Assembly (NCBI GenBank): GCA_009840385.1
Contig: VXNX01000013.1
Coordinates: 84,723-148,722, forward strand
Source of the DNA: Candidatus Dadabacteria bacterium
GTDB taxonomy: Bacteria > Desulfobacterota_D > UBA1144 > Nemesobacterales > Nemesobacteraceae
Direction: 5' to 3'
Length of the DNA stretch: 64,000 nt
Shown: positions 7,288 to 45,291 of the stretch, piece by piece
Layout: each line of letters begins with the position of its first letter
Position numbering within the stretch: position 1 is the first letter of the stretch
Translations under genes and position numbers: made by a program
Notes under the pieces: generated by a model
The model's input: the letters and a program-made list of their open reading frames with translations, nothing else
What the model was told of the DNA's origin: nothing
The model's database searches: none

Positions 7288-7363
7288 ATCGCGAAGATTC
7301 CACTGTGCGGTATGGAAAAGCTGAATAGTATGCCGAAATCGGCATAAACGTCTCCACATACCT

Positions 7364-8407
7364 CTACGGATTATAATACTGACCATCCGGATAGAACTGC
7401 CTGCAGTAGCGCCGATACTTCCCGATATCGCCGTCAACGCTGCAAAGCCTTGGAAGTGACCGATGTTTTAGATTGCTCCAGATGACGACATCCTGCATGA
7501 CGTCATGCTCCTGGGAAGCAATGAGGACCTTGTTCATGAGGCGGGTCCTGAGTCCCAGGGGAAGGAGCCGCAGCCCGTGGCCCACTCCCTTCAGATTACG
7601 AAGTTGTCGCACTTGGCTCACCAACGTCAATTCAATAATTTTGCCATCAATCGGTGTTGCAAGCACCCACAGGCGGGTGTCCATATTGATCGAATGTTCG
7701 TGAACCTCGACAATTGAATAGCCAAGCCCGTGTATACTGGCGACCGCAGAAACGTCGTACTCGAAAAGCTTGATGCCAGCAACTGTAAGGTTACGTTTGA
7801 AGTTAAAGGAGTTCCTGAGGAAGGTGCCGTCAATCGATACCGAACCGACAATGTTCACACTGTTGTAGTGGTGCACATAGTTAAGGTGTGCAACATCCAC
7901 GGAGTTCTCGGTAGTTTCCTGGGGATGTCCCGGGAAACGGAGGTGGCAGAATTCCATCCCGCTCCAGTCGGTATCCGTTGTGGAGATTTCGGGCAGGTGC
8001 CATAGAGGTTCTCGACCGCCGCTGCCCCACCAACCAAAAATGAGACCCTCTATCTCTCGTGTCTCGAACACCTTCAGCTTGGCGGTTTTTGGCGGAGGAG
8101 CGAAGGGTGTCGCCACGCATTGACCGCTCACGTCAAACTCGAAACCGTGAAAAGGACATACGAGGCAACCGTTGCGCACCCGCCCCCCTGCCTCAGGGCC
8201 AAGATCGGCTCCAAGATGCGGACAGACCGCCTCAGCAACACAAACGTTCCCTTCCCCGTTGCACCAGACAACAATCTGTTCTCCAAGCCAAGTTCTCTTT
8301 AAGAGTCCCTTTTTTTCAATCGTCTTGCGGCTGGCAACAAAATACCAGCCTTCCGGAAATGGGTAAAGCAAGGCTTCATCCTTGCGCACGTTTGAGTTTG
8401 GATTCAT
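7364..8407 (-). CDS. Rieske [2Fe-2S] non-heme-iron oxygenase, alpha-subunit type (KshA/Neverland/SdmA-like)
   Basis: CPHLGADL...CPFHGFEF Rieske ligands, plus the mononuclear-Fe motif ENSVDVAHLNYVHH (E-x3-D-x2-H-x4-H). Confidence 0.85.
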   Translation of the reverse strand: MNPNSNVRKDEALLYPFPEGWYFVASRKTIEKKGLLKRTWLGEQIVVWCNGEGNVCVAEAVCPHLGADLGPEAGGRVRNGCLVCPFHGFEFDVSGQCVATPFAPPPKTAKLKVFETREIEGLIFGWWGSGGREPLWHLPEISTTDTDWSGMEFCHLRFPGHPQETTENSVDVAHLNYVHHYNSVNIVGSVSIDGTFLRNSFNFKRNLTVAGIKLFEYDVSAVASIHGLGYSIVEVHEHSINMDTRLWVLATPIDGKIIELTLVSQVRQLRNLKGVGHGLRLLPLGLRTRLMNKVLIASQEHDVMQDVVIWSNLKHRSLPRLCSVDGDIGKYRRYCRQFYPDGQYYNP

Positions 8408-8444
8408 TTGCTGTTATTCCGCTTATCCAGCGTTAAGTACCAGA

Positions 8445-8458
8445 AATGCATTTGCATT
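8445..8458. promoter_or_regulatory. Operator-like inverted repeat AATGCA-TT-TGCATT
   Basis: Perfect 6-bp arms with a 2-nt spacer. Lies between the -10-like motif (8466-8478) and the Rieske start codon (8407). Confidence 0.3.
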
Positions 8459-8465
8459 AGCTTCA

Positions 8466-8478
8466 GGGAATTATATAT
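8466..8478 (-). promoter_or_regulatory. Promoter-like motif (minus strand reads ATATATAATTCCC) upstream of the Rieske gene
   Basis: Canonical TATAAT followed by TCCC, ~60 nt upstream of the ATG at 8407. The same motif recurs at 13534, 32384, 41417 and 20281. Confidence 0.45.
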
Positions 8479-8763
8479 CTAAACCGAAAAAGTGTAAATT
8501 CTGCTTTTTCTCGTTTGTGGGGGGAATAATAATAAGCGTTTTGCTTGCCTTTTGTTTCTAGATCAATGCACAGCTAGCCTGTTCTCTTAACATAAACTCA
8601 TAACTTGTCCTTATGAAATATTTTGGTTGCAGACAAAATGGCATCCGTCTAGCCAAGTTGATCTTGAAATTGCATCTTTCATTAAATACTATACTAGTGC
8701 TGGTGGCGACCGGCTCGTTCCACAGGACTCTTTATGAGGCAGATGCCTTTGCTTCCGTGAACT

Positions 8764-8877
8764 ATGGAAAACCTTAGATACATAATCGCTTACCTGTTGG
8801 GCTTTGTGGCTATTGCTCTTGTGGCAATTCTGATAGTAGTCGGCGGTGTTACTCTAGTTCGCTGGATTTTTGGGTAA
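8764..8877 (+). CDS. Possible 37-aa single-TM small protein (MENLRYIIAYLLGFVAIALVAILIVVGGVTLVRWIFG)
   Basis: Found by reading the sequence; it is below the ORF-track cutoff. Strongly hydrophobic core. It ends 70 nt upstream of the SMT-like gene. No clear SD. Confidence 0.25.
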   Translation: MENLRYIIAYLLGFVAIALVAILIVVGGVTLVRWIFG

Positions 8878-8946
8878 TTAAAGGGTTAAGCCCATAACCA
8901 CTTATTGCGAAAAATAATTCCATAAATTTTATAGGGGAAACCTGCT

Positions 8947-9984
8947 ATGCAACTCCGCAAATTATTGAACGGACTGAAGACCGCGTACAGCGGGTCGAAC
9001 GTCGCCCGCCGCGTGCAATACTTCAATGGATGGACAGACAGGGCGTCCGCGGAGAATACCGGTGCGGCGGACTATGATCACACCAAGACCGTCAAGGAAT
9101 ACTACGACCTTTGCAGCGAGCTCATGGTGTTCGGCTGGGGCGAATCCCTTCACTTCGCACCGCTGTCGCCCCGCGAGAGCCTGGAGGACTCCAAGATTCG
9201 GCATCAGCGGCTGATGATTGCCAAGCTGGAGCTGCACGAGGGGATGACGGTGGTCGATATCGGTTGCGGGATCGGCGGCCCGATGCGCCGTGTCGTCCGC
9301 GAGGCCGGAGTCAGGGTCGTCGGGGTCAACAACAATGAAATCCAGTTGGACAAGGCAAAATCGTTGAACGTTGAGGCAGGGCTCGACCACATGGTCGACT
9401 ACATCGCGTGCAGCTTCATGGACATGAGCGCCATCGCGGATGACACCTTCGACCGGGGCTACGCGATCGAATCGACGTGCCACGCGCCAAAAAAGACGGA
9501 CGCGTTCGCCGAGATCTACCGCGTGCTGAAACCCGGAGCCCTCTTCTGGGGTCAGGAAATGTGCCTTACGGACAAGTTCGATCCCGACGACAACCGGCAC
9601 CAAGCCATCAAGCAGGAACTAATGCACGGCATCGCGCTCAAGGATATCGCGACGATGGGCGAGGTGGACCGGGCGCTTGAAACCGTGGGATTCCAGGTCG
9701 TCGAGGGGGCGGACCTAGCCGTCGAGGAGAACGGTCCGACCACGCCGTGGTACCAACCCATGGAAACCCGGCACGGAACGCTGGACAATTTCCTGCCTAG
9801 GCTTCCGCTGGGGCGTAAGGTGTTCATCGGGGCATCCAGGCTGGCCGAGATACTGGGGGTGTTCCCGAAAGGTTCCGCGGAAGTCTTCAGTCTGATGGAT
9901 CGGACCGCCGACGCCTATGTCGCGGGCGGCAGGACCGGGGTCTTCACGCCGCTATATTGCTTCCTGGCACGCAAACCCCTCTAA
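8947..9984 (+). CDS. Sterol C-24 methyltransferase-like SAM-dependent methyltransferase (Erg6/SMT family)
   Basis: Collinear with yeast Erg6 as I recall it: EYYDL..FGWGESLHF, SAM motif VVDIGCGIGGP, YAIESTCHAP (Erg6 YAIEATCHAP), IYRVLKPG, and the C-terminal sterol-MT domain ending FTPLYCFLARKP (Erg6 FTPMMLFVARKP). Confidence 0.85.
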   Translation: MQLRKLLNGLKTAYSGSNVARRVQYFNGWTDRASAENTGAADYDHTKTVKEYYDLCSELMVFGWGESLHFAPLSPRESLEDSKIRHQRLMIAKLELHEGMTVVDIGCGIGGPMRRVVREAGVRVVGVNNNEIQLDKAKSLNVEAGLDHMVDYIACSFMDMSAIADDTFDRGYAIESTCHAPKKTDAFAEIYRVLKPGALFWGQEMCLTDKFDPDDNRHQAIKQELMHGIALKDIATMGEVDRALETVGFQVVEGADLAVEENGPTTPWYQPMETRHGTLDNFLPRLPLGRKVFIGASRLAEILGVFPKGSAEVFSLMDRTADAYVAGGRTGVFTPLYCFLARKPL

Positions 9985-10119
9985 ATCCCCGCATTCCCTA
10001 GTGCTCCAGCGGATCCTCCCATGGCGCACTTCAGGCGGACAATTTGCACATCCGCTCGGCAATGCGGAATTTCAGCTTTTGGTTCGGTTTCATCGCAGGT
10101 AAGGGTATATCTTAGGGAA

Positions 10120-11568
10120 TCAATAAGCTGCGCGTCTTGCAATTTCTTTAAGCATCTGCCTGAAAATAATCCAGTGGATTGGATAAAGACCATACCAGTA
10201 AAGCAGACCGCCGAGACCCAAGGGCTGGAAAACGGCCGTCTGCGTTATCTGACTGCCCCTTTCAGCGGGCTCGACTTCAAACTGAAGCCACGCCTGACCA
10301 GGCAACCTCATTTCCGCTCTCAGGCTCAGCAGTCGATTCTCTTCATACGCCTCAACACGCCAGAAATCCAGAGGGTCGCCCTGGCGCAAGTCGGTCGGAT
10401 GCCGCCTGCCCCTCCGCATCCCTACTCCACCCACCAGCAGATCAACCAGGCCGCGCAGATACCATATCCAAGTGGCAAAATACCAGCCCTGCTCTCCGCC
10501 AATGCGTCGTATGGGCGCGAAGGCTCGGGCGGGGTTCACTTTGACGACGGCCTGCTGGCGGTCAACAAGTTGTGAGCCGAAACGTCTTCTGCCCCAAGAC
10601 GGCCGGTTACCGCTTGAAGACACGGCGTCGCTCCAGCGGGTCTGGGCAATTTCCATATTTTCCTGCTTAAGGGCACGGTCTATCGCTTGGCGCACTCCCA
10701 AGGGATGTACCGGGAAACGCTTCAGGGCCGTTTTATCGCGGACGATGGTCTCGTTGCGTAAACCGTCAACGAGTTTCCTTCCCACCCGGGCGTAAAGGGG
10801 AGTCACAAGACCCAGCCAGAGACTTGAGAGATTGGGACTCAGTACAGGCACCGGAATCATGAAGCGCCGCACGCCGATCTGGCGTGCGTACTCCTGCATC
10901 AACTCACCGTAGGTAACCTGGTCAGGACCGGCGATTTCAAAAACCGCGCTGTCTTGCAGTTCCAGATCCAAGCCACAAATGAGATAGGCTATTACGTCTT
11001 CGATGGCGATGGGCTGGGTTAATGTTCTCACCCAGCTCGGGGTAACCATCAGCGGCAGCCTGTCAACCAGGCTTCGCAGCAACTCAAAAGAAAGCGATCC
11101 CGAGCCGATTATGATCGAGGCGCGAAATTCCAAGGTCAGGGGACCTTCTGAGGCCAGAATATCCCCTACTTCCCTGCGGCTCGCTAAGTGAGAGGAAAGT
11201 TCACCATCTCCGAACAAGCCTCCCAGATAAATAATTCGACGCACCCCATGTCGGCGTGCAACCCGGGCAAAATTACGCGCCCCGATACGGTCCTGCTCCT
11301 CGAAGTTGTCCCCGGAACCCATGGAATGGACCATGTAGTAGGCCGTGTCCACCCCTTCAAGCGCGATCTCGAGAGAATCAGGGTCAAGCACATCGCCGGC
11401 GATAATCCGGGTATCGGGGGAGAAACGACCGGCGAGATATCCGGGATTGCGGGCAAGACAACGCACCGGCTCTCCCCTTCCCTCCAAAGCCGGGACCAGC
11501 CGCCCGCCAACATAACCGCTTGCCCCCGTTACCAGTATAATCCGGTCTTCTTTCTTATCATCGGACAT
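10120..11568 (-). CDS. Atypical SDR / NmrA-like NAD(P)-binding protein with C-terminal DUF2867-like domain
   Basis: ILVTGASGYVGGRL Rossmann motif at the N-terminus. The ~150-aa C-terminal region resembles DUF2867 fusions. GC-rich by eye. Confidence 0.7.
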   Translation of the reverse strand: MSDDKKEDRIILVTGASGYVGGRLVPALEGRGEPVRCLARNPGYLAGRFSPDTRIIAGDVLDPDSLEIALEGVDTAYYMVHSMGSGDNFEEQDRIGARNFARVARRHGVRRIIYLGGLFGDGELSSHLASRREVGDILASEGPLTLEFRASIIIGSGSLSFELLRSLVDRLPLMVTPSWVRTLTQPIAIEDVIAYLICGLDLELQDSAVFEIAGPDQVTYGELMQEYARQIGVRRFMIPVPVLSPNLSSLWLGLVTPLYARVGRKLVDGLRNETIVRDKTALKRFPVHPLGVRQAIDRALKQENMEIAQTRWSDAVSSSGNRPSWGRRRFGSQLVDRQQAVVKVNPARAFAPIRRIGGEQGWYFATWIWYLRGLVDLLVGGVGMRRGRRHPTDLRQGDPLDFWRVEAYEENRLLSLRAEMRLPGQAWLQFEVEPAERGSQITQTAVFQPLGLGGLLYWYGLYPIHWIIFRQMLKEIARRAAY

Positions 11569-11611
11569 TAACTTCTCGATGCAATTATTAACTGAGATTA
11601 ATTAACCTCTT

Positions 11612-12523
11612 TTAAAAAACATCGCTGAGCTTTTTTGCTGTCCTGAGCTTTTCAAATGTGGTGTAGCGTAGCCCCTGCATAGCTCCAAGCGGAGCGTCGC
11701 TGAAAGGTATCGGCCCAATCTCTTGTGCTTTCTCAGAGAAAACAATCCGATACTTACCACTCTCCCCATATGGTTCGATCCGGTCAACCGGCGCATAGTG
11801 TGTGATTGCGGAAACTGGATTTGTTTGATAAGCGGCGATGTATTTAATCTTTCCAAGCATCCCACCAGAGATACGTATTGCATGCCAAGAGTCTTCTCCG
11901 AGAAAGACCTTCTTAAACCCCTCTTCACGTGCGGGCACTATTACAGTATCGGGTTTGTGCGAAGGCAAATTGGGCAGTATATCTTCAGTAGTAGCTCTTG
12001 GCGTAGCAACTGGTTTCGGAAACTCGAACACTCGCAAGCCCACCAATGGGAGTATTTGGAGGATTTCCTTTAGAAATCTCTTTGTATCCGCTTTCTCAGA
12101 TTCAGTCATCACAGGTTCTTGCGGAACATTACCGTTGGCCAAATGGCAGCGGTTAGCTTGCGCTGCACGATCCAGTAGCGCATATTCCAGCCAAGTAATA
12201 TGAGCCCGGTTGAGACCATCATTGGCTGAAACAAACACGATCCCATGATCCCAGAAATCCTTATCCTTATAGTGAGACTCAATACGTTTATGGACACCAT
12301 CCGCCTGACCAACATAAATAGTTGGCAACTCATCATCCTCATTCTCATAACCCTTTAACATATAAACACCGGCTCGAGTGAACTCAGGACGCTGCTTGAT
12401 TTCTGCCCATTTGGAACGTGGAAAGGCCAAACCGACCCCTGTCCAATTCATATGGTCAATCACCATAAGGCTTTCTGGGTCGCCATCGGGGACATATATG
12501 TGGATTGTAAACGCTTCAGCCAT
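11612..12523 (-). CDS. GIY-YIG nuclease family protein with C-terminal DUF4357-like domain
   Basis: AGVYMLKGY ... TIYVGQADGVHKRIESH (GIY / YVG / Arg-His block), then a ~110-aa C-terminal domain. Lower GC than its neighbours by eye. Confidence 0.7.
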   Translation of the reverse strand: MAEAFTIHIYVPDGDPESLMVIDHMNWTGVGLAFPRSKWAEIKQRPEFTRAGVYMLKGYENEDDELPTIYVGQADGVHKRIESHYKDKDFWDHGIVFVSANDGLNRAHITWLEYALLDRAAQANRCHLANGNVPQEPVMTESEKADTKRFLKEILQILPLVGLRVFEFPKPVATPRATTEDILPNLPSHKPDTVIVPAREEGFKKVFLGEDSWHAIRISGGMLGKIKYIAAYQTNPVSAITHYAPVDRIEPYGESGKYRIVFSEKAQEIGPIPFSDAPLGAMQGLRYTTFEKLRTAKKLSDVF

Positions 12524-12831
12524 TAATTGCTCTGGTTTTTAATACTCCCACACTGAGAACTTAATATTGATGATTTCATTAGACCTAGAACTGGAGCATA
12601 CTCCAAACAAATTCTATGTAATGAGAAAATATATGTAAGAACATGTTTAATTGTCAATCATGTATGCACAACTATAAGAACGTGTTCTGAGTTTGCTAAA
12701 ATTCAGGTTTTGACATTTCTTCAAATTTCTTCTTATGGTTCAGGAAAATCACATCCAATCCCCTACCTTGATGGAAATTGCTAAAAAAATGTTTTTGCCC
12801 AAAAAGGAAAAGAGTCCTCAGTATACGGAAA

Positions 12832-13500
12832 CTAGGAAAGCAGTTTCTGAATTCTCTTTATCCTCTCTTCTTCCGTTTCCTCTTCCTTCAAGCTTGGGGG
12901 AATCCCGTTTCCTCTTATCACGGCGGGCCTTTCGCCAACTTCGGCATGCCACCTAGTAAGATTCGGAAAAGCCCTGAGATCCAGTTCCGCCCAGTCGTAA
13001 GCGTTTATCCAGGGCCATGTGGCTATGTCGGCGATCGAATACTCTTCTGCAAGATACTCCACTTCAGAGAGTCTTCCGTCGAGTATCGAGTAGAGCCTTT
13101 TAGTCTCCTCGGTGTATCTCTTTATGGCATAGGGTATTTTTTCCGGGGCGTACTTTAAAAAGACGTTCAGCTGTCCCTGCATGGGCCCTACCGCCGACAT
13201 CTGGAACATGAGCCACTGGATGCACGTTGTTCTGCGACTGTCCCCTAGGGGCGGAAGAAAGTTTCCGAACTTGTCGGCAAGATATATGAGTATGGCTCCT
13301 GACTCAAAAACCGCCGTGCCGTCATCATTGTCAACTATTGCGGGTATTTTCCCGTTCGGGTTTATCTCGAGAAACCACGGCTCCTTGTGTTCAAGCTCAG
13401 AGAGGTTAAGAGCGTGAATCTTGTAGGCGGCTCCCAGTTCTTCAAGCATTATTGAAACCTTCTTGCCGTTCGGCGTGGCCGCCGTGTAGAGATCGATCAT
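12832..13500 (-). CDS. Glutathione S-transferase (Nu-class, YfcG/YghU-like)
   Basis: [36 protein letters not shown]-terminal thioredoxin-like domain plus a helical C-terminal domain. Confidence 0.85.
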
Positions 13501-13533
13501 TTTTTGCCTCGGTTTATATCGGGCCCTCAGTTA

Positions 13534-13546
13534 GGGAATTATATAC
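13534..13546 (-). promoter_or_regulatory. Promoter-like motif (minus strand GTATATAATTCCC) upstream of the GST gene
   Basis: TATAAT-TCCC lies ~35 nt upstream of the ATG at 13500. A GAGG SD lies between them. Confidence 0.45.
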
Positions 13547-13630
13547 AATAGTTACGAAAAATCCGGTCAATTTAACTTGTTTCCTGCATCGGCCGTATAT
13601 GTTAAATTTTCTTTTGGAAGGAGTCAGACG

Positions 13631-13702
13631 ATGACCGCAACAGGTCACGCTCCCGAAATGAAACGTAGATTGAGTACGGCTGGACGAAGGATGCCCAGAT
13701 GA
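13631..13702 (+). CDS. Possible 23-aa upstream ORF (MTATGHAPEMKRRLSTAGRRMPR) coupled to the hydroxylase gene
   Basis: Strong SD (GGAAGGAG) 7 nt upstream of the ATG at 13631. Its TGA (13700-13702) overlaps the ATG (13699) of the next gene as ATGA. Confidence 0.25.
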   Translation: MTATGHAPEMKRRLSTAGRRMPR

Positions 13703-14334
13703 CCTATATAATAAGCGCAATCCTGGTGATGAGCGGATTTATGGCCGGAGCCCAGCTGGCCTACTCTAAGCTCTATGACTGGAGAATAGCCGAGGGAGAC
13801 GGCAGTCGTCTCAAGGACCGTTACAGAAATGCTTCAATGAACGGAACGATCGCCGTGGCGCTTTACCTTGTCGCGATCGTGATGTTCGGGGAACTCCTGA
13901 TAGACTTGGATGCAGCTTCCACCTGGTACAAGCCCATCCTTGTCCTGCTGCTTTACGATTTCGGGTACTACTGGCTGCATCGTCTGCTGCATGTGCGGAA
14001 AGTCATGCAGAAAGTGCACTGGGTTCATCACATGAACCTGCATCCCACTGCCGTCGACTCCCTGTATCTGCACCCGGTGGAAATGATCGCGGGGCTGGCT
14101 TTCCTGTTAATCTCGATAGTGATAGTGGGCCCCTTGGGTATCGGAGCGTTTCTGGCGGTCGTTTTGCTTCATACCATCATCAACATACTGCATCATACGA
14201 ATCTGCAGCTACCCTATCGTCTGGCATGGCTCGCGAACCACTGGGCCTCAAGTCACGATGCGCATCATAGCCAGGGAGGAAATTACGGAGTGATTACGCC
14301 TGTATGGGACTGGATATTCGGAACGCGCTCATAA
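13699..14334 (+). CDS. Fatty-acid hydroxylase superfamily membrane di-iron enzyme (sterol desaturase / C-4 methyl oxidase, Erg3/Erg25-like)
   Basis: Three His boxes (HRLLH, HWVHH, HDAHH) and 4 predicted TM segments in 211 aa. Confidence 0.8.
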   Translation: MTYIISAILVMSGFMAGAQLAYSKLYDWRIAEGDGSRLKDRYRNASMNGTIAVALYLVAIVMFGELLIDLDAASTWYKPILVLLLYDFGYYWLHRLLHVRKVMQKVHWVHHMNLHPTAVDSLYLHPVEMIAGLAFLLISIVIVGPLGIGAFLAVVLLHTIINILHHTNLQLPYRLAWLANHWASSHDAHHSQGGNYGVITPVWDWIFGTRS

Positions 14335-15410
14335 AAGGTCCCGTACTGGTAACCGGCGGATGTGGATTCATCGGAGGGGCGATTGTCCACGCATTGGCCG
14401 ACGAGGGGCGGGATGTGCGGGTAGTCAGTCCGCATTGCCATTCGTTTCGGTCCGACGTGCGATTTCTGAACGTGGATATCAGAGACCTGTCTGCCCTCGT
14501 CCGGGCTTGCCAAGGATGCGAGACGGTTATTCATTGCGCGTCCGTCGTACAGACCCGCAACACGGCACGGGATGAAATGTGGTCCGTGAACTACGGCGGG
14601 ACGGTCAACGTGATAGAAGCATGCAGGAGGGCTGGGGTACGCAAACTCGTGCATATCAGTTCGGCCAGCGTGGTTTTCGAGGGCAGGGATATCGAGGCCG
14701 GAGACGAGACCCTTCCCTATGCGGAAGTATCTATGAGCGCCTACGTGGACAGCAAGATAGAGGCGGAACGGCGTGTCCTGGAATTCGCTACAGAGGATGT
14801 AACCCGGGCATGCGCGCTGCGTCCTCACCTTGTCTTCGGTCCGGGAGACCAACGTTTCCTCCCGAACATTCTCAAACGGGCAGACGGGGCAGGTATCCGG
14901 GAAGTTGGTCGGAGGGAGAAGCTGTCCGATTTCGTCTATGTCGACAATGTGGTCGATGCCGTGCTGGCCGCGGAACGGGCCCTTGACTCGAACGGGCTGG
15001 TATCCGGTCAGGCATATTTCGTGACAAACGCGGAGCCGGTCCCGTTTTTCGAGTTCATAGAACGCCTGCTTATGGCGTCAGGGTACGGTCCCATCCGACG
15101 ACGTATTCCCTACTGGGTGGCGTACGCGGGAGCGGGCATTGTGGAGGGCTTCCATGCCGTGATACGACGGGGTTTGGTCCCGGAGGACGGCCTGTCCCGG
15201 TTCGCGGTCCGCTACTTGAATACGCATCACTACTTCCGTATTGACAAGGCGTGCCGCGACCTGCATTGGCAACCCCGCGTATCCCTTGCCGAGGGGATAG
15301 CACGCACGGCCGATTCGTTGCACGATTCGGCGTACGACAGGGCGTTACGTGTTCAACAAGAACCCTCTATCGCAAAGGAACCAGACGATAAAGGTGATGT
15401 CCCGCGATAA
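14304..15410 (+). CDS. 3-beta-hydroxysteroid dehydrogenase/isomerase-family NAD(P) enzyme (Erg26/NSDHL-like)
   Basis: VLVTGGCGFIGGAIV Rossmann motif, catalytic YVDSK (YxxxK), and extended-SDR architecture. Overlaps the preceding gene by 31 nt, so the two are probably co-transcribed. Confidence 0.8.
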   Translation: MGLDIRNALIKGPVLVTGGCGFIGGAIVHALADEGRDVRVVSPHCHSFRSDVRFLNVDIRDLSALVRACQGCETVIHCASVVQTRNTARDEMWSVNYGGTVNVIEACRRAGVRKLVHISSASVVFEGRDIEAGDETLPYAEVSMSAYVDSKIEAERRVLEFATEDVTRACALRPHLVFGPGDQRFLPNILKRADGAGIREVGRREKLSDFVYVDNVVDAVLAAERALDSNGLVSGQAYFVTNAEPVPFFEFIERLLMASGYGPIRRRIPYWVAYAGAGIVEGFHAVIRRGLVPEDGLSRFAVRYLNTHHYFRIDKACRDLHWQPRVSLAEGIARTADSLHDSAYDRALRVQQEPSIAKEPDDKGDVPR

Positions 15411-15466
15411 CTGGACCTTCGACGCACAGATCGTAACCGCCGTAGGAATGTTCAGCGCAGGGTCCA

Positions 15467-16066
15467 TTAGGCCTGAATCTCGTCCGCTCTCTCAAGATGT
15501 TTCGCGTATTCAATAATTTCCGGGAAAAACCGGTTGAAATGCTCGTTCATCTCGTCGTAGTGCGCCACGAGTTCCTGCTCGGACCCGGAAAGGGGATTTT
15601 TTCTCCTTACTCTTATCGACATCCCCCGGAATACGACGCTTAGCCCGGAAATGCTCCGGTACTTCTCTATCCAGCCGTCCTTGATGATGGTGTTTATCCT
15701 GGCCGCCGCGTGCTCGGGGAAGATATCCGCCGCCCCGAGGATTATACCGTACGACCTGTCAAGAAAGTCCCTTAGGCTCTCATCCGAATACCTCTCCCAG
15801 TTAACGGCAAGCAGGTGGTCATAGAAGATGTCAAGAATAACCCTACTCCAGCGCCTGCGCTCGGGACTTATAAGCCGGGCGCACTCCCTCGTTATTTCAT
15901 GAGAATCCGTCCAGGCGTCAATCCTGCGGTGCATCACTATCCCGCGTCTTATGCCCGGGGAATAGCGGTCCTCGGTGAGGCGGCCCTTCACGAAATCGCC
16001 CAGGAAATTTCCTATCAGGCATTCAGGGTCATCCCCGGCAAGGCGGATATGGGCAAGGTAGTTCAT
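15467..16066 (-). CDS. acpH: Acyl carrier protein phosphodiesterase
   Basis: MNYLAHIRLAGDDPECLIGNFLGDFVKG matches the AcpH N-terminus. ~200 aa. Confidence 0.8.
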   Translation of the reverse strand: MNYLAHIRLAGDDPECLIGNFLGDFVKGRLTEDRYSPGIRRGIVMHRRIDAWTDSHEITRECARLISPERRRWSRVILDIFYDHLLAVNWERYSDESLRDFLDRSYGIILGAADIFPEHAAARINTIIKDGWIEKYRSISGLSVVFRGMSIRVRRKNPLSGSEQELVAHYDEMNEHFNRFFPEIIEYAKHLERADEIQA

Positions 16067-16075
16067 CTGCGAACG

Positions 16076-17926
16076 TCACCCGGAACTCAGCCGCTCAAGA
16101 AACTTGTTTATTCTTCCGACCATGCTTCCGGGATTCTCCATGTACCCGGCGGCCAAAAGCGCGTTATCAAAGAGTTGCTCAACTATGATTGCGGCGAATT
16201 CCCCGTCTTTTCCTCTCATGGATGCAAGGTTTTTTATAAGCGCATGGTCGCCGTTTATCTCAAGGCGGACGACGGAACGCATCTCGGCACCCGCGCTGAT
16301 GTTCTTCATGATCCTTTTCATTCCCTGGGTCATGGTGGAATCGGAGTTAAACGCAGCAGCGGGACTCTCAATGAGCCTCCGGCTCATGCGCACGTCCCCG
16401 ACCTTCTCGCCAAGCACTTCCTTCATCCAGCCGCAAAGCGATTTTTCCTCCTCGGAAGGACCCTCAGAAGAACTCTCCGCATCCTTACCCACAACTCCTA
16501 TGTCAACGCTGTCGGCAGAAATAATCTTTTTTTCCTCATACTCCCCGAGAGTCGACATCACGAATTCGTCAATCGGTTCGTATATGAAAAGAACCTCGAT
16601 GTTCTCGGAGCGGAAAAACTCCATGTGAGGCCCGTTCTCAAGCGTTTCTCTTGCGGAACCGAACAGGTAATAGATCTCCTCCTGATCTTCGCGCATCCCC
16701 GAGAGGTAGTCCTCAAAGGAAACCAGTTCCCCTTCCCCCTTGCGCGAGGACTCAAAGCGCAGCAGCCCCCGAAGCTGCTCTTTGTGTTCAAAATCCGATG
16801 CTACACCCTCTTTTATGAAAAAACCGAACTTGCCGTAGAAATCGCCGTAACTTTTCGGGTCGTCAGCCGAACTCTGCTCGAGAAACTTTATGAACCTTTT
16901 CGTGATGGCGGAATTAAGCTTCTTCACAAGCGAGCTGTCCTGCATGGTTTCTCTTGAGATGTTAAGAGGAATGTCAGCGCTGTCCACCACGCCCTTTAGA
17001 AATCTTGCCCATTCGGGAAGAAGATTTTTGGGAGAGGCGTCTATAAGAACCCTTCTTGAGTAAAGACTCACTCCGGGATCCATTCTCCCGAATCCCAGGC
17101 GCTCCATGTTGTCCTCAGGCACGAACAGAAGCACGTTCATGTCAATCGGGGCTTCCGAGGAGAAATGAAGCCTGTATCTGGGTTCGTCAAAGGAATTTGT
17201 CTGGAATCTGTAGAAGCCGCCGTACTCCTGATCCGTAATTTCGCTTTTGTTGCGAAGCCAGACGGCTTCCGTCGTATTTATCTGCTCACCGTTTAGCTTA
17301 AGCGGGAATGGAACAAACGCGGAGTATTTTCTAAGGATGTCCCTTATCACTTCCGGGTCGGAGTACTCCTTTGCATCCTCCCTGAGAGACACGACGACCT
17401 TTGTGCCCCTTCTGTGCCCCTTTCCCTTTGTTATCTCGAACACTCCGTCCCCGCTGCTTCGCCAGACGAGATGCTCTGAATTCTTCCTGTAGCCACGGGT
17501 CACCACTTCAACCGAATCGGCAACCATAAAGGAGCTGTAAAAGCCCACCCCGAACTGCCCGATCAGATCTCCGCCTTCAGTCCCGCTTTTCTCTATCGCC
17601 TCAAGAAAACTCCTTGAACCCGACCGGGCTATCGTTCCGAGGTTCTCAACGAGCTCTTTTCTGCTCATTCCGATGCCGTAGTCGGTAAAGGTGATCGTAT
17701 TGTCCTCGCTTGATGTGGATATTTCGATTTCAAGCGGGAGCGCCTCGTCGTATATCTCTTTTTCGGTAAGCTGTATGTACCTCAGTTTTTCAAGGGCGTC
17801 ACAAGCGTTTGAAACCAGCTCCCTGATGAATATCTCCTTGTCTGTATAGAGAGAATTGATCACGATATCCATCAGCCTTCGCACTTCGGCCTGGAACTCG
17901 TGCTTTTCAGTTTTCTCCTTGGTCAT
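16076..17926 (-). CDS. htpG: Molecular chaperone HtpG (Hsp90)
   Basis: FIRELVSNACDALEKLRY, GQFGVGFYSSF, 616 aa. Confidence 0.95.
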   Translation of the reverse strand: MTKEKTEKHEFQAEVRRLMDIVINSLYTDKEIFIRELVSNACDALEKLRYIQLTEKEIYDEALPLEIEISTSSEDNTITFTDYGIGMSRKELVENLGTIARSGSRSFLEAIEKSGTEGGDLIGQFGVGFYSSFMVADSVEVVTRGYRKNSEHLVWRSSGDGVFEITKGKGHRRGTKVVVSLREDAKEYSDPEVIRDILRKYSAFVPFPLKLNGEQINTTEAVWLRNKSEITDQEYGGFYRFQTNSFDEPRYRLHFSSEAPIDMNVLLFVPEDNMERLGFGRMDPGVSLYSRRVLIDASPKNLLPEWARFLKGVVDSADIPLNISRETMQDSSLVKKLNSAITKRFIKFLEQSSADDPKSYGDFYGKFGFFIKEGVASDFEHKEQLRGLLRFESSRKGEGELVSFEDYLSGMREDQEEIYYLFGSARETLENGPHMEFFRSENIEVLFIYEPIDEFVMSTLGEYEEKKIISADSVDIGVVGKDAESSSEGPSEEEKSLCGWMKEVLGEKVGDVRMSRRLIESPAAAFNSDSTMTQGMKRIMKNISAGAEMRSVVRLEINGDHALIKNLASMRGKDGEFAAIIVEQLFDNALLAAGYMENPGSMVGRINKFLERLSSG

Positions 17927-18128
17927 CTAAAACCTCCATTAAGCGGCAAATTCCATTTGGAAAAACCGTTTTCACTTAGTAAAAATAAGACTGATTGCTC
18001 CCTTGACAAGTGCACGCGGCCCGAGAACCGTTTTTTTATACGGTAAATGTTCCAAGACGGCGAGCTTACCGTAGAGAATTCGGAAGAAAGATATGGGGTC
18101 AGGTCTTGATAAAGTCCCAAAGGCAATC

Positions 18129-18947
18129 CTATTTGCGCCCTGTCGCTTCCCCCCAGGCAAAAGCCGCCAGCGCTCCAGAGGTGTCCTTCCACTCATCAAG
18201 CTTCCGGCGCCAGTCATCGAACTGTTCCTGGGTAGCAATACCGTATTTCGTGGCCGCTTCAACTGTATCAGGGGAGAAAAACCAAGCGCTAATGAAACCG
18301 TGAAGAAAATCAATGTCTTCGTCCGTGCAGAAAGGTTCGAACGAAACACTCGCACTTATGTCCGAGAAACCGGCCTCAACAAACAGCCGCTTGAGTTCCC
18401 TGCCGATCTGGGGGTGGCCCCCGTTAGCTTCGATAAGCTTCGCAAACGTTTCCCATCCGTCCCTCAACGAAGGCTCCAAAAACGAGGAATCAACAAACAT
18501 CTCCCGGCTTGAGATGATGCCGCCGGGCTTCAGGACTCTACGCACCTCCGCCAGAACAGCCAAGGTTTGCGGGGCGTGCATGAGAACGGCGTGACAGTGT
18601 GCGACATCAAACGAGTCATCCTCAAAGGGCAGATCTGCCACGTCAGCGGTCTGGAACACAGCGTTTCGGTGTCCGCCGGCATCCGCGGCGGCCCGTGCGA
18701 TCTCAATCTGCGAAGCCTCCATATCGACACCGAAAAACTCTCCGGGTTCAACCGCTTTTGCCAGTCCCACAGAAATCGTTCCGGGGCCGCAGCCGAAATC
18801 AAGAACGCGCATGCCCGGCTCAAGGTGCGGAAGCAGGTGTGCGGCGCTGGTCCCCGCATTGCGGCGCCTGAGCAGTTTCTGAAAATCGTCGCTGTATCCC
18901 ATGGTGTAGGCAGAAGTGGAAGCATCTTGGGTCTTGTTGCTGTTCAT
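18129..18947 (-). CDS. Class I SAM-dependent methyltransferase (substrate unknown)
   Basis: VLDFGCGPGT motif I and FDVAHCHAVLMH; Methyltransf_11/25-like. Confidence 0.8.
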   Translation of the reverse strand: MNSNKTQDASTSAYTMGYSDDFQKLLRRRNAGTSAAHLLPHLEPGMRVLDFGCGPGTISVGLAKAVEPGEFFGVDMEASQIEIARAAADAGGHRNAVFQTADVADLPFEDDSFDVAHCHAVLMHAPQTLAVLAEVRRVLKPGGIISSREMFVDSSFLEPSLRDGWETFAKLIEANGGHPQIGRELKRLFVEAGFSDISASVSFEPFCTDEDIDFLHGFISAWFFSPDTVEAATKYGIATQEQFDDWRRKLDEWKDTSGALAAFAWGEATGRK

Positions 18948-41389: not shown

Positions 41390-41437
41390 GTGCCCAAGGT
41401 GAAAAGTGTTTCTTTTGGGAATTATATATCTAGGTTG
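41390..41437. repeat. Left arm of an inverted repeat bounding the RM islet
   Basis: GTGCCCAAGGTGAAAAG (41390-41406) is the exact reverse complement of 45275-45291. Gapped similarity continues inward through GGGAATTATATATCTAGGTTG. Confidence 0.75.
41417..41430 (-). promoter_or_regulatory. Orphan copy of the TATAAT-TCCC promoter-like motif, pointing out of the islet into the 3' end of aceA
   Basis: The minus strand reads GATATATAATTCCC. There is no downstream gene in that orientation. Confidence 0.3.
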
Positions 41438-41605
41438 ACTGCTTTCTCTGTTTGTCCGCTTCCGTCGCCATCGTCTTCTCGACATACTGCCGAGCCCGTT
41501 TGTTCGCAGCCCGCTTCAGGAACCGCTTGACGAGGACTCCGTTTGTGTCCTTGTTAGGTCACGGAAGTGCAATTGTCCGTGCTTTTTCGATGGTTCCATT
41601 GTGCT

Positions 41606-43096
41606 TCACCGTTTCCCCGGTCGGTAGGTCTGCACCCCCTTGGCCGCTTCTTCGGGCGTTGCACTCTTGTAACCCGCTTTGTATGTCTGCTTTTGCGGAT
41701 GGCTAAACCTGTCGGTAAGTTTCGCTACGCCCGCTTCGGCAGATAAAACGGCTTGCGATTTCATGGACATTCCTTTCTTCATGAACGAATCTATGTTGCG
41801 TAACATACTTGATTTCGGCAGCGGAACCAAAACATTCCTGATGTGATCCTCAGTCAGTTCATCCACAACCGCACCATGAATGTTGGCAATTAGTTGAATC
41901 TGCCCCAACGGGGATGTGAGGAACGAGCATAGATATCCGGCGGGACACGCCTTTTCCTGCGGCACGACACGCATAATGTGTTCGGAAGCCGCCCAGCCAT
42001 CCCACTCATCTGGGCAAATGGTCACGCGCCCTACGGTTCCAGATCGTGTAACGAGAACCCACCCGGCTTCAATCGAGACTTCGTCTATGAGTTCATGTTC
42101 TCGGGACAGGTATTTCAAGTCCGCTGCTTGGAATTGGACAACGTGACTCCCTTGGAGAAACGGCACCCCGTACTCGGGTTGGACGTAGATTCTCTTGAAT
42201 CTCTTTGGCATGAAAACTTCCGCAACATTCCGTAGCGGCACCGCATCCATTTCGCGCAATTGGTCAAGGGCGTCGAAAAGGGCAGGATTGTAGTGTCCGG
42301 CATCGATTCTGAGTTCCCCGCTCAGGTGCGTTGACCGAAGGGAGAACCAATTGGCTTGGGAACAGTCTGCCGATGACGTTACCGGGATGGTGTCCACGGC
42401 CTTGCGTACCAAGGTCGCTGCTTCCGAGCGTTCATCGACCGATGCTGTCATTGCAGTCTCAATCGAATGGACCAATGCTCTATCTTCCGCCGTTTCCGGT
42501 AAGGGCACGAGAATGTCTTCTGCTTGTTCTTCGGTTAGTTCATCGACCACCGCCCCATATATGTTTGCGGTCAACTGGGCTTGACCGAGTGGCGAAGCGA
42601 GGAACGCGGCTAGATAACCGGAAGGGCATTTCGTCTCATCTGGAACAATACGAAGGATATGCTGCGAAGCCGCCCAGCCATCCCATTCCGGCAGGCAGAT
42701 GGCAGTTCTTCCAATGGTTCCCGAGCATGTCACCAAAAGCCATCCGGCGCGCACTATCCACTGTTCGAGCCTATGGCTGGACAGGGATAGGTATTTGAGA
42801 TCGGCGGGTTGGAAGTGAACGACGTGGCTTCCCTGCAAGAATGGGATACCGTGTTCTCTCTCGACGTACATGCGTTTGAATCTCGGCGGGATGAACACGT
42901 TTTCCGTGATGTCGGCCAATCGTTCGAGGCGCATGCCCGATTCATTCAAAGTGCGTAGCGCTTCGATCAGACGGGGACTGTATCGTTCCGCGTCAAAGCG
43001 AAGTTCGTCCGAGTCTGTCAGGAAGCCGGACGGCAGGACGTAGCTCTCCGTTTTGGACGGAGGTGCATGCTTGGGAGAGGGAACCGTTTGCAGCAT
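41606..43096 (-). CDS. Restriction-modification specificity (S) subunit with two near-identical target-recognition halves
   Basis: Two Methylase_S-like repeats. RFKRMYVEREHGIPFLQGSHVVHFQPADLKYLS aligns with RFKRIYVQPEYGVPFLQGSHVVQFQAADLKYLS. GWLLVTCSGTIGR...VPLP aligns with GWVLVTRSGTVGR...VPLP. Confidence 0.8.
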   Translation of the reverse strand: MLQTVPSPKHAPPSKTESYVLPSGFLTDSDELRFDAERYSPRLIEALRTLNESGMRLERLADITENVFIPPRFKRMYVEREHGIPFLQGSHVVHFQPADLKYLSLSSHRLEQWIVRAGWLLVTCSGTIGRTAICLPEWDGWAASQHILRIVPDETKCPSGYLAAFLASPLGQAQLTANIYGAVVDELTEEQAEDILVPLPETAEDRALVHSIETAMTASVDERSEAATLVRKAVDTIPVTSSADCSQANWFSLRSTHLSGELRIDAGHYNPALFDALDQLREMDAVPLRNVAEVFMPKRFKRIYVQPEYGVPFLQGSHVVQFQAADLKYLSREHELIDEVSIEAGWVLVTRSGTVGRVTICPDEWDGWAASEHIMRVVPQEKACPAGYLCSFLTSPLGQIQLIANIHGAVVDELTEDHIRNVLVPLPKSSMLRNIDSFMKKGMSMKSQAVLSAEAGVAKLTDRFSHPQKQTYKAGYKSATPEEAAKGVQTYRPGKR

Positions 43097-43097
43097 C

Positions 43098-44963
43098 TCA
43101 TGCTCCTAGCCATTCCTCGAAGTCCAGCACTACCTTTGGCAAATCGTCATCTATCGTTGGTTCTTCGTTGTCGTCGAGAATCACGAATCCTTCCGGTGTC
43201 TTCACGAAGACCTTGTTTCCCCTCTTGTCTATGCCGACCTTCTTGGGAATGGCCATGAAGACACCGTATTCGTCCAGCGCTCCCGCCCGCGCCAGCTTTA
43301 CTTCCTCCCGAGAGAGTCTTTGCAGCACCAGGACACTCGGATTCGGCACTCCACCCCCTTCGGCGAAGGTCTCCTTGGGCAGGTCTATGGAAGCCACGAT
43401 CCGCGTGTTCTGGAGCAGCCACTTCCGGATGAATCTGAGTCCGGGGTTGTTGGCGATGCTTCGAGGAAGGACGATGGCGAGGTATCCGCCCCGCTTGACG
43501 TACTTCAATGCGCCCTCCACAAACAACTGTTCGGCGGGCATGAATCTCCGCATGTCCTTGGATTCCAACGCAGGCAATTCATAGCGAGAAAGAATATGCG
43601 GGTCGTCTATGTTTGCTTGTCCTCCAAACGGAGGGTTCGTCACCACGATGTCGAATGCGCCTTGCTTGATTTTCTGACGGGCCGTTTCGTCCTCCCATTC
43701 CCCCGGTGCAGCGAGGGAGTCACCTTGGAACACGTTCACGGAACCGTCGCCGTGCATGACGAGGTTCATCTGCGTTGTGCGGACAAGAAAGGGGTTGATA
43801 TCCATGCCAAAGATGTTGCGTTCCGCCAGTTCTTTGACGCGGATTTCCGCACGGGTGCGGATATCTTCTTCGGAACCACCTTTCGCCCGCTCGAATCCGG
43901 TTATCTTTTCTCGCACAAGGTTGATTACCGCGACGAGGAATCCGCCCGTTCCGCAGCAGCAGTCGAGCACCTTCAAGGAGGCGATTCTCTGGTTCGAGTG
44001 CAGCGACAACACCATACGGACGGCCATGTCGCAGACATTGCGAGGCGTGAAGAACTCGCCCCGATCTCCCCGCAGGTTTGCTCCAACCAGTTCCTCGTAT
44101 GCCTGCCCCTTTATATCCGTCCGGGTATTGAGCAACGAGTATCGCTGCAATTCGGATACGATGTAGGCGAGAACCTTCAGGTTCAACTTGATCCGGTCAT
44201 CTGGTTCAAAGATATAGGGATAGCGGTCCTTGACCTCGTTGAACAATGGCGAGATGCGTTCGTCCCGAAGCCTGCGCTGCCCAGCGATGGACTTGCGCTC
44301 CTCCCCGAGAACGAAAAATCGCAGATCGTCCACGACCTCTTTCTCGTCTAACACCTTGCAGAAGATAAGCTTTTGGAGTTCGTGGAATGCTTCAGCCTTC
44401 TGGATTCCCTGATTGGCGTAAATATAGTTGTGACAGCGCCGGAGTGAAGCCTTGAGGTCAGTCGCCGGGGTAAGTTCGTGGAACTTGGGCGGTTGCGGCT
44501 GCGTATCCCCAAACCGTGGAATATCGGTCGTGTCTTCAATCTTCCCGTCTTCGGCTTTCTCGTAGGCCAGCCTCTCCGAACCTACCCACAGCCCGAACCG
44601 GCACGACGAACAGGCGCTCATGTAGCTCTTGAGTTGTTCGACGCCTTCATCTTTGTCCTTCGGCTTGATGTCTTCGCGCTTCGCTTCCACAATGACGGCA
44701 ACTGTGTCCTGCCGTCTGGGACCACCCGGTTTGAAGATCACGATGTCGGCGCGTTTTCGCTTCGTCCCCATCTTCACCGAGAACTCGACGGCCATGTCCG
44801 ATACGTCATATCCGTACTCGTCAACGAGACTCCTCGCCCATCGCTGCCGGACGTTTTCCTCGGGGGTATCCTTCCGCAGTTTACCGCTGACAAAGCACCT
44901 AATCTTGCCTGCCGGTACGAAGGGAATTACCTCGGCAGGAGGTTTTTTGTCTTTCCCGCTCAT
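43098..44963 (-). CDS. Fused PD-(D/E)xK nuclease-like (HSDR_N-type) domain + gamma-class N6-adenine DNA methyltransferase
   Basis: N-terminal RADIVIF...VAVIVEAKRE (D...ExK); MTase motif I VLDCCCGTGGFL and motif IV VVTNPPFGG. The start at ATG 44963 overlaps the stop of the upstream ORF as ATGA. The stop is 1 nt before the S-gene start. Confidence 0.8.
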   Translation of the reverse strand: MSGKDKKPPAEVIPFVPAGKIRCFVSGKLRKDTPEENVRQRWARSLVDEYGYDVSDMAVEFSVKMGTKRKRADIVIFKPGGPRRQDTVAVIVEAKREDIKPKDKDEGVEQLKSYMSACSSCRFGLWVGSERLAYEKAEDGKIEDTTDIPRFGDTQPQPPKFHELTPATDLKASLRRCHNYIYANQGIQKAEAFHELQKLIFCKVLDEKEVVDDLRFFVLGEERKSIAGQRRLRDERISPLFNEVKDRYPYIFEPDDRIKLNLKVLAYIVSELQRYSLLNTRTDIKGQAYEELVGANLRGDRGEFFTPRNVCDMAVRMVLSLHSNQRIASLKVLDCCCGTGGFLVAVINLVREKITGFERAKGGSEEDIRTRAEIRVKELAERNIFGMDINPFLVRTTQMNLVMHGDGSVNVFQGDSLAAPGEWEDETARQKIKQGAFDIVVTNPPFGGQANIDDPHILSRYELPALESKDMRRFMPAEQLFVEGALKYVKRGGYLAIVLPRSIANNPGLRFIRKWLLQNTRIVASIDLPKETFAEGGGVPNPSVLVLQRLSREEVKLARAGALDEYGVFMAIPKKVGIDKRGNKVFVKTPEGFVILDDNEEPTIDDDLPKVVLDFEEWLGA

Positions 44964-45253
44964 GCCTGTACCTCTACCGACAGTCTGTTGTTGCTCACCA
45001 GCTTCCGGTAGGGCAGCATGAGTCCGCCTGTGACGATGGCCATCTGTTCGATAGTGTCTAGTTCCTGGATGTTGTGGCAACTAGCGAACTTATCTACGAA
45101 CCATCGGCGGGCGGCTTCCTCGTCGGGAAACATCCGCACCAGTTCTATGAGGGAAATGCCTTTCCTGTGGGCATTGGCGGGTGCCTTACGTGCCATAGTC
45201 TTCGTCCGTTGTAATTTAGGCTGAAGTATGCCCGAACCGGAATCAAATGCCAA
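44960..45253 (-). pseudogene. Internally deleted IS1595-family (ISXO2-like) transposase relic
   Basis: The N-terminal block SLIELVRMFPDEEAARRWF is joined directly to the C-terminal block HNIQELDTIEQMAIV..L.YRKL. The zinc-ribbon and DDE core are missing. Confidence 0.55.
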
Positions 45254-45291
45254 CCCAAGTATATAGTCCCCTTTCTTTTCACCTTGGGCAC
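45252..45291. repeat. Right arm of the inverted repeat bounding the RM islet
   Basis: CTTTTCACCTTGGGCAC (45275-45291) is the exact reverse complement of 41390-41406. The inner part CAACCCAAGTATATAGTCCCC is similar to the left arm. Confidence 0.75.
45259..45271 (+). promoter_or_regulatory. Promoter-like motif GTATATAGTCCCC pointing toward mgtE
   Basis: A variant of the TATAAT-TCCC motif inside the right inverted-repeat arm, ~280 nt upstream of the mgtE ATG. Confidence 0.35.

Follow-up and report, generated by a model that had tools for sequence, protein, structure and literature searches.

The 64,000-nucleotide stretch of contig VXNX01000013.1 from a Candidatus Dadabacteria bacterium, referred to below as the window, contains two adjacent genes that encode a nuclease–methyltransferase (MTase) fusion protein and a separate specificity (S) subunit. 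We consider it probable that these constitute a self-contained, mobile restriction–modification (RM) module of the BcgI/BsaXI kind, i.e. a Type IIB-like system comprising an RM fusion and an S subunit. The transposase gene (tnp), the RM-fusion gene (M) and the S gene travel as a single IS1595-family transposon. An original prediction, made from the DNA letters, had read the pair as a Type IIB-like nuclease–MTase fusion with S rather than a decayed Type I system. As far as can be judged from the sequence this reading is supported, in that BsaXI is the nearest relative, the catalytic residues are retained, the genes are transposon cargo, and M and S recur together at other loci. The locus would therefore join the known BcgI/BsaXI-like systems as a further example.

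The RM-fusion gene (43098–44963, minus strand) encodes a protein of 621 amino acids (aa) from an ATG, and was analysed using Pfam, NCBIfam, PADLOC, a family alignment, AlphaFold2 and Foldseek. The reading frame is open upstream of the ATG as far as a TTG at 45080; the 621-aa start is backed by the public annotation, which likewise calls a gene of 621 aa here, and by the N-termini of homologues. In Pfam, residues 34–149 match HSDR_N_2 (E = 3.8e-21), the PD-(D/E)xK nuclease domain found at the N-termini of Type I HsdR proteins, and residues 282–551 match N6_Mtase (E = 5.9e-28). The chain is thus divided into a PD-(D/E)xK nuclease domain (residues about 20–150, carrying E60, D73, E93, K95 and Q110-x3-Y114), a helical connector seen in the AlphaFold2 model (about 170–300), a gamma-class N6-adenine MTase with a Rossmann fold (about 305–560, with motif I at 334–342 and NPPF at 443–446) and, again in the model, a short C-terminal tail after about 560. 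The S gene (41606–43096, minus strand) encodes 496 aa with two Methylase_S stretches in Pfam; its two target-recognition halves share 54% identity. The junction between the two genes reads TGA-g-ATG, so that exactly one base separates the RM stop codon from the S start codon. Both this spacing and the order of an N-terminal D...ExK block ahead of gamma-class MTase motifs are as originally described, and all the motifs quoted at that time (KRADIVIF, VIVEAKRE, VLDCCCGTGGFL and TNPPFGG) are present in the translation. The locus therefore has the two components of a Type IIB system of the RM+S form: nuclease and MTase in one polypeptide, with HSDR_N_2 and N6_Mtase domains, conserved residues and the fold of the BsaXI RM subunit, and a separate Type I-like S subunit with two target-recognition domains (TRDs).

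The nuclease site was examined in an alignment of 43 sequences that are 33–89% identical to the RM protein of the window. D73, E93, K95 and Y114 are invariant, with conservation of at least 90% for E60 and Q110, giving the pattern E-x12-D-x19-E-x-K followed by Q-x3-Y. The latter corresponds to the QxxxY motif described in work on EcoR124I. In the family-profile alignment D73, E93 and K95 are equivalent to D90, E105 and K107 of BsaXI, although the stretch covering the N-terminal domain scores just 9 bits. Mutation to alanine of E73, D90, E105 and K107 in BsaXI abolishes cleavage (PMC11997821). Identity in the nuclease and MTase domains is 68 vs 67% between close homologues and 34 vs 31% between distant ones, so by this measure the nuclease domain appears as constrained as the MTase domain. 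The absence of catalytic residues on alignment had been named in advance as an observation that would turn the pair into an orphan MTase; since these residues are conserved, in a domain that is as constrained as the MTase, the Type IIB-like interpretation stands on this point.

BsaXI (Type IIB; PDB 8w0p, 8w2p and 8w2q; PMC11997821) is the best match to the RM protein in the PDB both by sequence and by fold. In the sequence search its RM subunit leads with E = 3.6e-27 using the single sequence and 1.1e-58 using the family profile, with Type I HsdM proteins well behind at 1e-10 to 1e-24. An AlphaFold2 model built from a single sequence was useless (predicted local distance difference test score, pLDDT, of 35) and was replaced by one built with the 43-sequence alignment, which has a pLDDT of 84.8 and a predicted template modelling score (pTM) of 0.79. 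A Foldseek comparison of this model with the PDB places the three BsaXI entries at the top (E = 1.4e-25 to 4.3e-23 over 604–642 aligned columns), then Type I HsdM at about 1e-14, and then the Type IIG/IIL enzymes DrdV and BpuSI. The two proteins share the order nuclease, multi-helical connector and gamma-class N6-adenine MTase, and each is accompanied by a separate two-TRD S protein, although their identity is only about 21%. A PDB sequence search with the S protein gave weak, uninformative matches.

BcgI and Sau42I, named as the known RM+S type by Furuta et al. 2010 (PMC2853133), combine a Type IIB/IIG-like RM subunit with a Type I-like S subunit. The likeness to these enzymes is one of organization, namely two genes and no translocase. 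Type I systems (HsdR, HsdM, HsdS) share with the locus the fold of the S subunit, the gamma-class MTase and a nuclease domain of the HsdR N-terminal family, but here the nuclease is fused to M rather than to a motor and the SF2 translocase is absent. The A subunit of BcgI, about 637 aa in length, is close in size to the RM protein, whereas its B subunit, at about 341 aa, is shorter than the 496-aa S protein found here.

The limits of the unit that carries these genes are precisely defined. The IS1595-family transposon occupies 41417–45271 (3,855 bp, minus strand) and carries the genes for the RM fusion and for S, together with a transposase relic, between imperfect inverted repeats. It is flanked by an 8-bp target-site duplication, TTTCTTTT, whose left (41409–41416) and right (45272–45279) copies abut the ends of the element; between 41300 and 45420 this 8-mer occurs just twice. 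IS1595-family elements typically give a duplication of this length. The terminal inverted repeat on the S-gene side, GGGAATTATATATCTAGGTTGAC (41417–41439, plus strand), pairs with that on the transposase side, GGGGACTATATACTTGGGTTGGC on the minus strand (45249–45271), with 17 of the 23 bases matching the reverse complement. The original prediction had noted that the islet contains no HsdR or SNF2 gene, and this holds, but the islet also has a third open reading frame (ORF), the 78-aa transposase relic, and the exact boundaries described here.

The relic (44960–45196, minus strand) is IS1595/ISXO2-like, an N-terminal block being fused in frame to a C-terminal one. The first 36 residues correspond to the N-terminal end, and the last 46 to the C-terminal end, of an intact 329-aa transposase at a related locus in a Nitrospira metagenome-assembled genome (MAG), L001 (tblastn, E = 1.5e-10 and 1.2e-4), so that the zinc ribbon and the DDE core have been deleted in frame. 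A Pfam scan of the relic itself gave no match, the ORF being too short, and the homology rests on tblastn. Pfam recognizes DDE_Tnp_IS1595 in the L001 transposase and in the other intact copies found at this position, those of L008, L013, L027 and L034, and IS1595 transposases, intact or decayed, adjoin the module in 10 loci. The TGA stop of the relic and the ATG start of the RM gene share bases, as ATGA. This 4-nt overlap recurs in L001 and L004 and, in the form GTGA, in L008 and L027. A consensus scan gives a promoter-like match, TTGGCA-17-CATACT (45225–45253, minus strand), that begins within the transposase-side repeat upstream of the relic ORF and may tentatively be taken as a candidate promoter of the tnp′-M-S operon, where tnp′ denotes the relic.

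The site without the element is represented by three metagenome contigs (L082–L084), in which flanks 86–92% identical to those of the window run from the isocitrate lyase gene straight into the region upstream of mgtE. Taken together, the target duplication and the empty site indicate that the unit that entered this genome was tnp, M and S and nothing else. Moreover, a sister element is present in L001 (8955–12799, 3,845 bp) with its own 8-bp duplication, CAAGGAAG, and the ends of this intact element share the inverted-repeat core GGGGAYTATATAC with that of the window. When the inverted repeats of the window were sought in all close loci they were clear only in L001 and, on one side, in L015; the other ends were diverged or unresolved. 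This is a clean case of an RM system carried as transposon cargo, supported by the target duplication, by the empty site and by the existence of a sister element in a different phylum.

A literature search for RM genes as passengers of IS1595 elements found one precedent, that of Furuta, Abe and Kobayashi 2010 (PMC2853133). In Neisseria gonorrhoeae NCCP11945 they described RM-fusion and S homologues together with a transposase-like ORF, inverted repeats, an 8-bp duplication and an empty site in a relative. The two units are likened by their layout; in N. gonorrhoeae the RM gene is N-terminally truncated, whereas here the RM gene is intact and the transposase is broken.

The insertion lies in a terminator-like hairpin that is native to the genome and follows the isocitrate lyase gene. 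Its left (41390–41406, plus strand) and right (45275–45291, plus strand) arms form a 17-nt perfect inverted repeat, now 3,868 bp apart, and the right copy of the target duplication overlaps the first five bases of the right arm. This perfect repeat was considered as the transposon ends and rejected, as it is a native hairpin in relatives and the true ends lie inside it. In L083 (370–420) and L084 (6905–6950) the hairpin is GTGCCCAAGGCGAAAAG, 5 nt and CTTCTCGCCTTGGGCAC, followed by a run of T; an exact search for the 17-mer in the related loci gave no match. We note that insertion in the loop of this conserved hairpin (17-bp stem, 5-nt loop) between isocitrate lyase and mgtE has split the likely terminator of a glyoxylate-shunt operon.

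A gene for an ATP-dependent translocase was detected neither in the element nor in the rest of the 64-kb window, and none was seen among 34 related loci. All the ORFs of at least 586 aa in the window were scanned, and HsdR, SNF2 and DEAD proteins are absent from them; they encode a histidine kinase, MMPL, Hsp90, UbiD, a permease, malate synthase, isocitrate lyase, a Cdc48-like protein and MFS. The flanks are housekeeping in character, with permease, malate synthase and isocitrate lyase genes upstream and mgtE, an MBL-fold hydrolase and recF downstream. The HsdR subunit with an SF2 motor that a Type I system would have is thus missing from the window, and the transposon holds tnp′-M-S alone.

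The 34 loci are those with at least about 50% identity among 80 that were retrieved, taking one genome per species (L numbers refer to these and to other loci compared). They span Nitrospira, Pseudomonadales, Caldilineaceae, Spirochaetia, Binatia, Acidobacteriota, Dehalococcoidia, Actinomycetota and others. M and S are the only genes conserved across them, and the IS1595-family transposase is the sole other recurrent neighbour. The form of S varies. A full two-TRD gene is present in the window and in L002, L020, L021, L024 and L025, a half-size gene of 206–322 aa lies downstream or upstream of M in some loci, and in L005 and L006 the S domain is fused to M in one chain of 874–926 aa. A 22-kb Skermanella plasmid encodes a 42%-identical M and a 489-aa S, with no R gene on the replicon. 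More widely, over 5,000 database proteins are homologous to the RM protein at E <= 1e-10. Among public runs, the element itself is held only in DNA contigs from sponge metagenomes, and no RNA run is listed.

MAGs from six or more phyla (L003–L007, L014–L023 and others) encode homologues 75–83% identical to the RM protein of the window, which indicates recent transfer between phyla. Single-chain nuclease–MTase–S fusions of 874–1,129 aa are found in L005 (9947–12571), L006 (9755–12535) and L032 (9947–13336), from Spirochaetia and Synergistaceae. Here the module is condensed into a single gene, in the manner of Type IIB enzymes that consist of one chain or of Type IIG enzymes like MmeI.

The nearest curated relatives, which the original prediction had overlooked, are the methyltransferase MAD2 and the S subunit MAD5 of MADS, the methylation-associated defence system (NF047738 and NF047740; bioRxiv 10.1101/2023.03.30.534895). 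In NCBIfam the RM protein matches MAD2 over its full length with 539.5 bits and the S protein matches MAD5 over its full length with 336.4 bits; each score is short of its equivalog cut-off (720 and 400 bits, respectively). PADLOC gives the REBASE-derived model MTase_II as the top match to the RM protein (387 bits, full length), with mad2 at 212 bits. MADS shares with the locus the HSDR_N_2 plus N6_Mtase architecture and a two-TRD S subunit, but MAD1, 3, 4, 6, 7 and 8 are all absent here. MAD6, MAD7 and MAD8 are mandatory in the detection model of the MADS authors, and at this locus the neighbours are instead malate synthase, isocitrate lyase and mgtE. The main text of the MADS preprint does not describe the N-terminal domain of MAD2.

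Relatives that lie closer to MADS provide an informative contrast. The sample consisted of 107 proteins of a MADS-related clade, six of which were scored and gave 646–714 bits on the MAD2 model, short of the 720 bits or more of canonical MAD2 proteins; the result applies to this clade only. None of these proteins has D at position 73, where P, S, A, G or Q stands instead, or K at position 95, which is taken by Q, A, V, E, H, T or L. E93 and E60 are mostly replaced too, while the HSDR_N_2 domain itself is kept. In L047 (Magnetococcales, 6241–18868) the gene order is a 643-aa ORF, MAD7 (410.7 bits against a cut-off of 410), M (scoring 696 bits with MAD2), S and a HerA/MAD8-like protein of 1,755 aa, and L089 (3566–15591) has a like architecture with a MAD7 gene recognized by Pfam. 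It appears, then, that the nuclease fold persists with a dead active site where other effectors are encoded, whereas stand-alone pairs of M and S, such as that of the window, keep the site invariant. At the level of sequence this is the strongest argument that the N-terminal domain does the cutting in the stand-alone systems, and it offers a testable evolutionary link to MADS. The five-gene layout common to L047 and L089 comprises a protein of about 600 aa of unknown type, MAD7, a MAD2-like M, S and a HerA/DUF87/MAD8-like giant of 1,715–1,755 aa, and at both loci the HSDR_N_2 domain of M retains none of its PD-(D/E)xK catalytic residues.

A number of observations weigh against the assignment of the locus to the BcgI/BsaXI kind. 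The public annotation of the two genes is just ‘N-6 DNA methylase’ and ‘subunit S’. The weak 9-bit match in the N-terminal domain aligns E60 with E75 of BsaXI instead of the essential E73. The RM subunit of BsaXI is 916 aa in length, i.e. around 300 aa longer than the 621-aa protein, which would lack a counterpart of the C-terminal ‘paddle’ of BsaXI (PMC11997821). Lastly, comparison of the S protein of the window with those of L001–L011 gives TRD identities of 47–68% between phyla, and together with the 54% identity between the S halves this is unusually high for an RM system. The high conservation of the TRDs also hints at a narrow range of recognition sequences.

Such conserved TRDs would fit a fixed methylation target, and the locus might then encode an orphan M+S MTase that only methylates, for epigenetic marking or to protect transposon and host DNA, with the nuclease-fold domain retained for DNA binding or regulation. 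The MADS-related clade demonstrates that the fold can persist without catalytic residues, and the best PADLOC model is labelled only MTase_II. We nevertheless think this unlikely. Over 43 sequences reaching down to 33% identity, D73, E93 and K95 never vary and E60 and Q110 seldom do; the nuclease domain is under the same constraint as the MTase domain; and in the sister clade, where catalysis is dispensable, the same residues are replaced in 107 of 107 proteins. There is less still to recommend the idea that the pair is the methylation and specificity module of a larger MADS-like or Type I system whose effectors (HsdR, MAD3/4 or MAD7/8) are encoded elsewhere in the genome. MAD2 and MAD5 are the best curated matches, and in MADS they act with separate nuclease modules, but both scores are under the equivalog cut-offs, and the MADS-type relatives have a dead nuclease site that the window protein does not share. 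The window has neither MAD nor HsdR genes, the element bounded by the target duplication contains tnp′-M-S only, and M and S alone recur in 34 loci. Note also that a unit transposing between phyla cannot depend on a resident partner.

The reduction of the transposase to 78 aa could be taken as a sign that the whole element is a decaying relic, its transposase destroyed and M and S drifting and inactive. This seems very improbable, given that both ORFs are full length with all motifs intact, that the RM protein is 89% identical to its nearest homologues, and that the start codon and its stop/start coupling to the relic are kept. We give least credence of all to a decayed Type I system that has lost hsdR. 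The S subunit and the gamma-class MTase are indeed Type I-like, but the nuclease domain takes the place of the N-terminal domain proper to HsdM, 34 loci and a plasmid show the pair of genes to be the conserved state, and the unit arrived as a transposon without hsdR. The pair is better viewed as a complete mobile unit than as the remains of a Type I system.

If the Type IIB-like module functions in the manner of BsaXI, two of the 621-aa proteins would bind one two-TRD S subunit to form an (RM)2S complex, in which S would read a bipartite site through its two TRDs. The site is probably symmetric or nearly so, because the two halves of S are 54% identical and many relatives use a half-size S that must dimerize. 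By the same analogy the gamma-class MTase domains would generate N6-methyladenine on host DNA, and the two flexible N-terminal PD-(D/E)xK domains would cut unmethylated incoming DNA beside the site without ATP-driven translocation. Cleavage of both strands on either side of a bipartite site is the defining property of Type IIB enzymes. As to its history, the element inserted in the loop of the terminator hairpin between isocitrate lyase and mgtE, and the transposase core was later lost by in-frame deletion. With the core deleted, the element is now fixed in place.

Beyond this locus lies a large, well-conserved and uncharacterized clade of compact nuclease–MTase plus S modules with swappable full, half or fused S subunits; if these cut like BcgI or BsaXI they are a possible source of new Type IIB enzymes. 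We tentatively suggest, as a possibility that we would not yet favour, that the clade is an autonomous ‘restriction transposon’, in which an IS1595 transposase would be translationally coupled through an ATGA or GTGA overlap to a minimal Type IIB-like RM+S cargo serving defence or addiction. Such units are now spread over many phyla, sponge symbionts among them. On this suggestion MADS would have derived its methylation module from a unit of this type, whose own nuclease died after dedicated nuclease and ATPase modules had been recruited.

Two further arrangements were seen among the more distant loci. In L040 (985–6015), L038, L042 and L045, at about 35% identity, an Abi-like gene (AbiJ_NTD4/Abi_C) lies between M and S with a HARE-HTH gene upstream, constituting a different and larger type of locus. 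In L049 (12774–15182) an 802-aa protein combines a Methylase_S region with a domain resembling radical-SAM proteins and spore photoproduct lyase; it adjoins a 33%-identical homologue of M, with RadC and AbiEii genes upstream.

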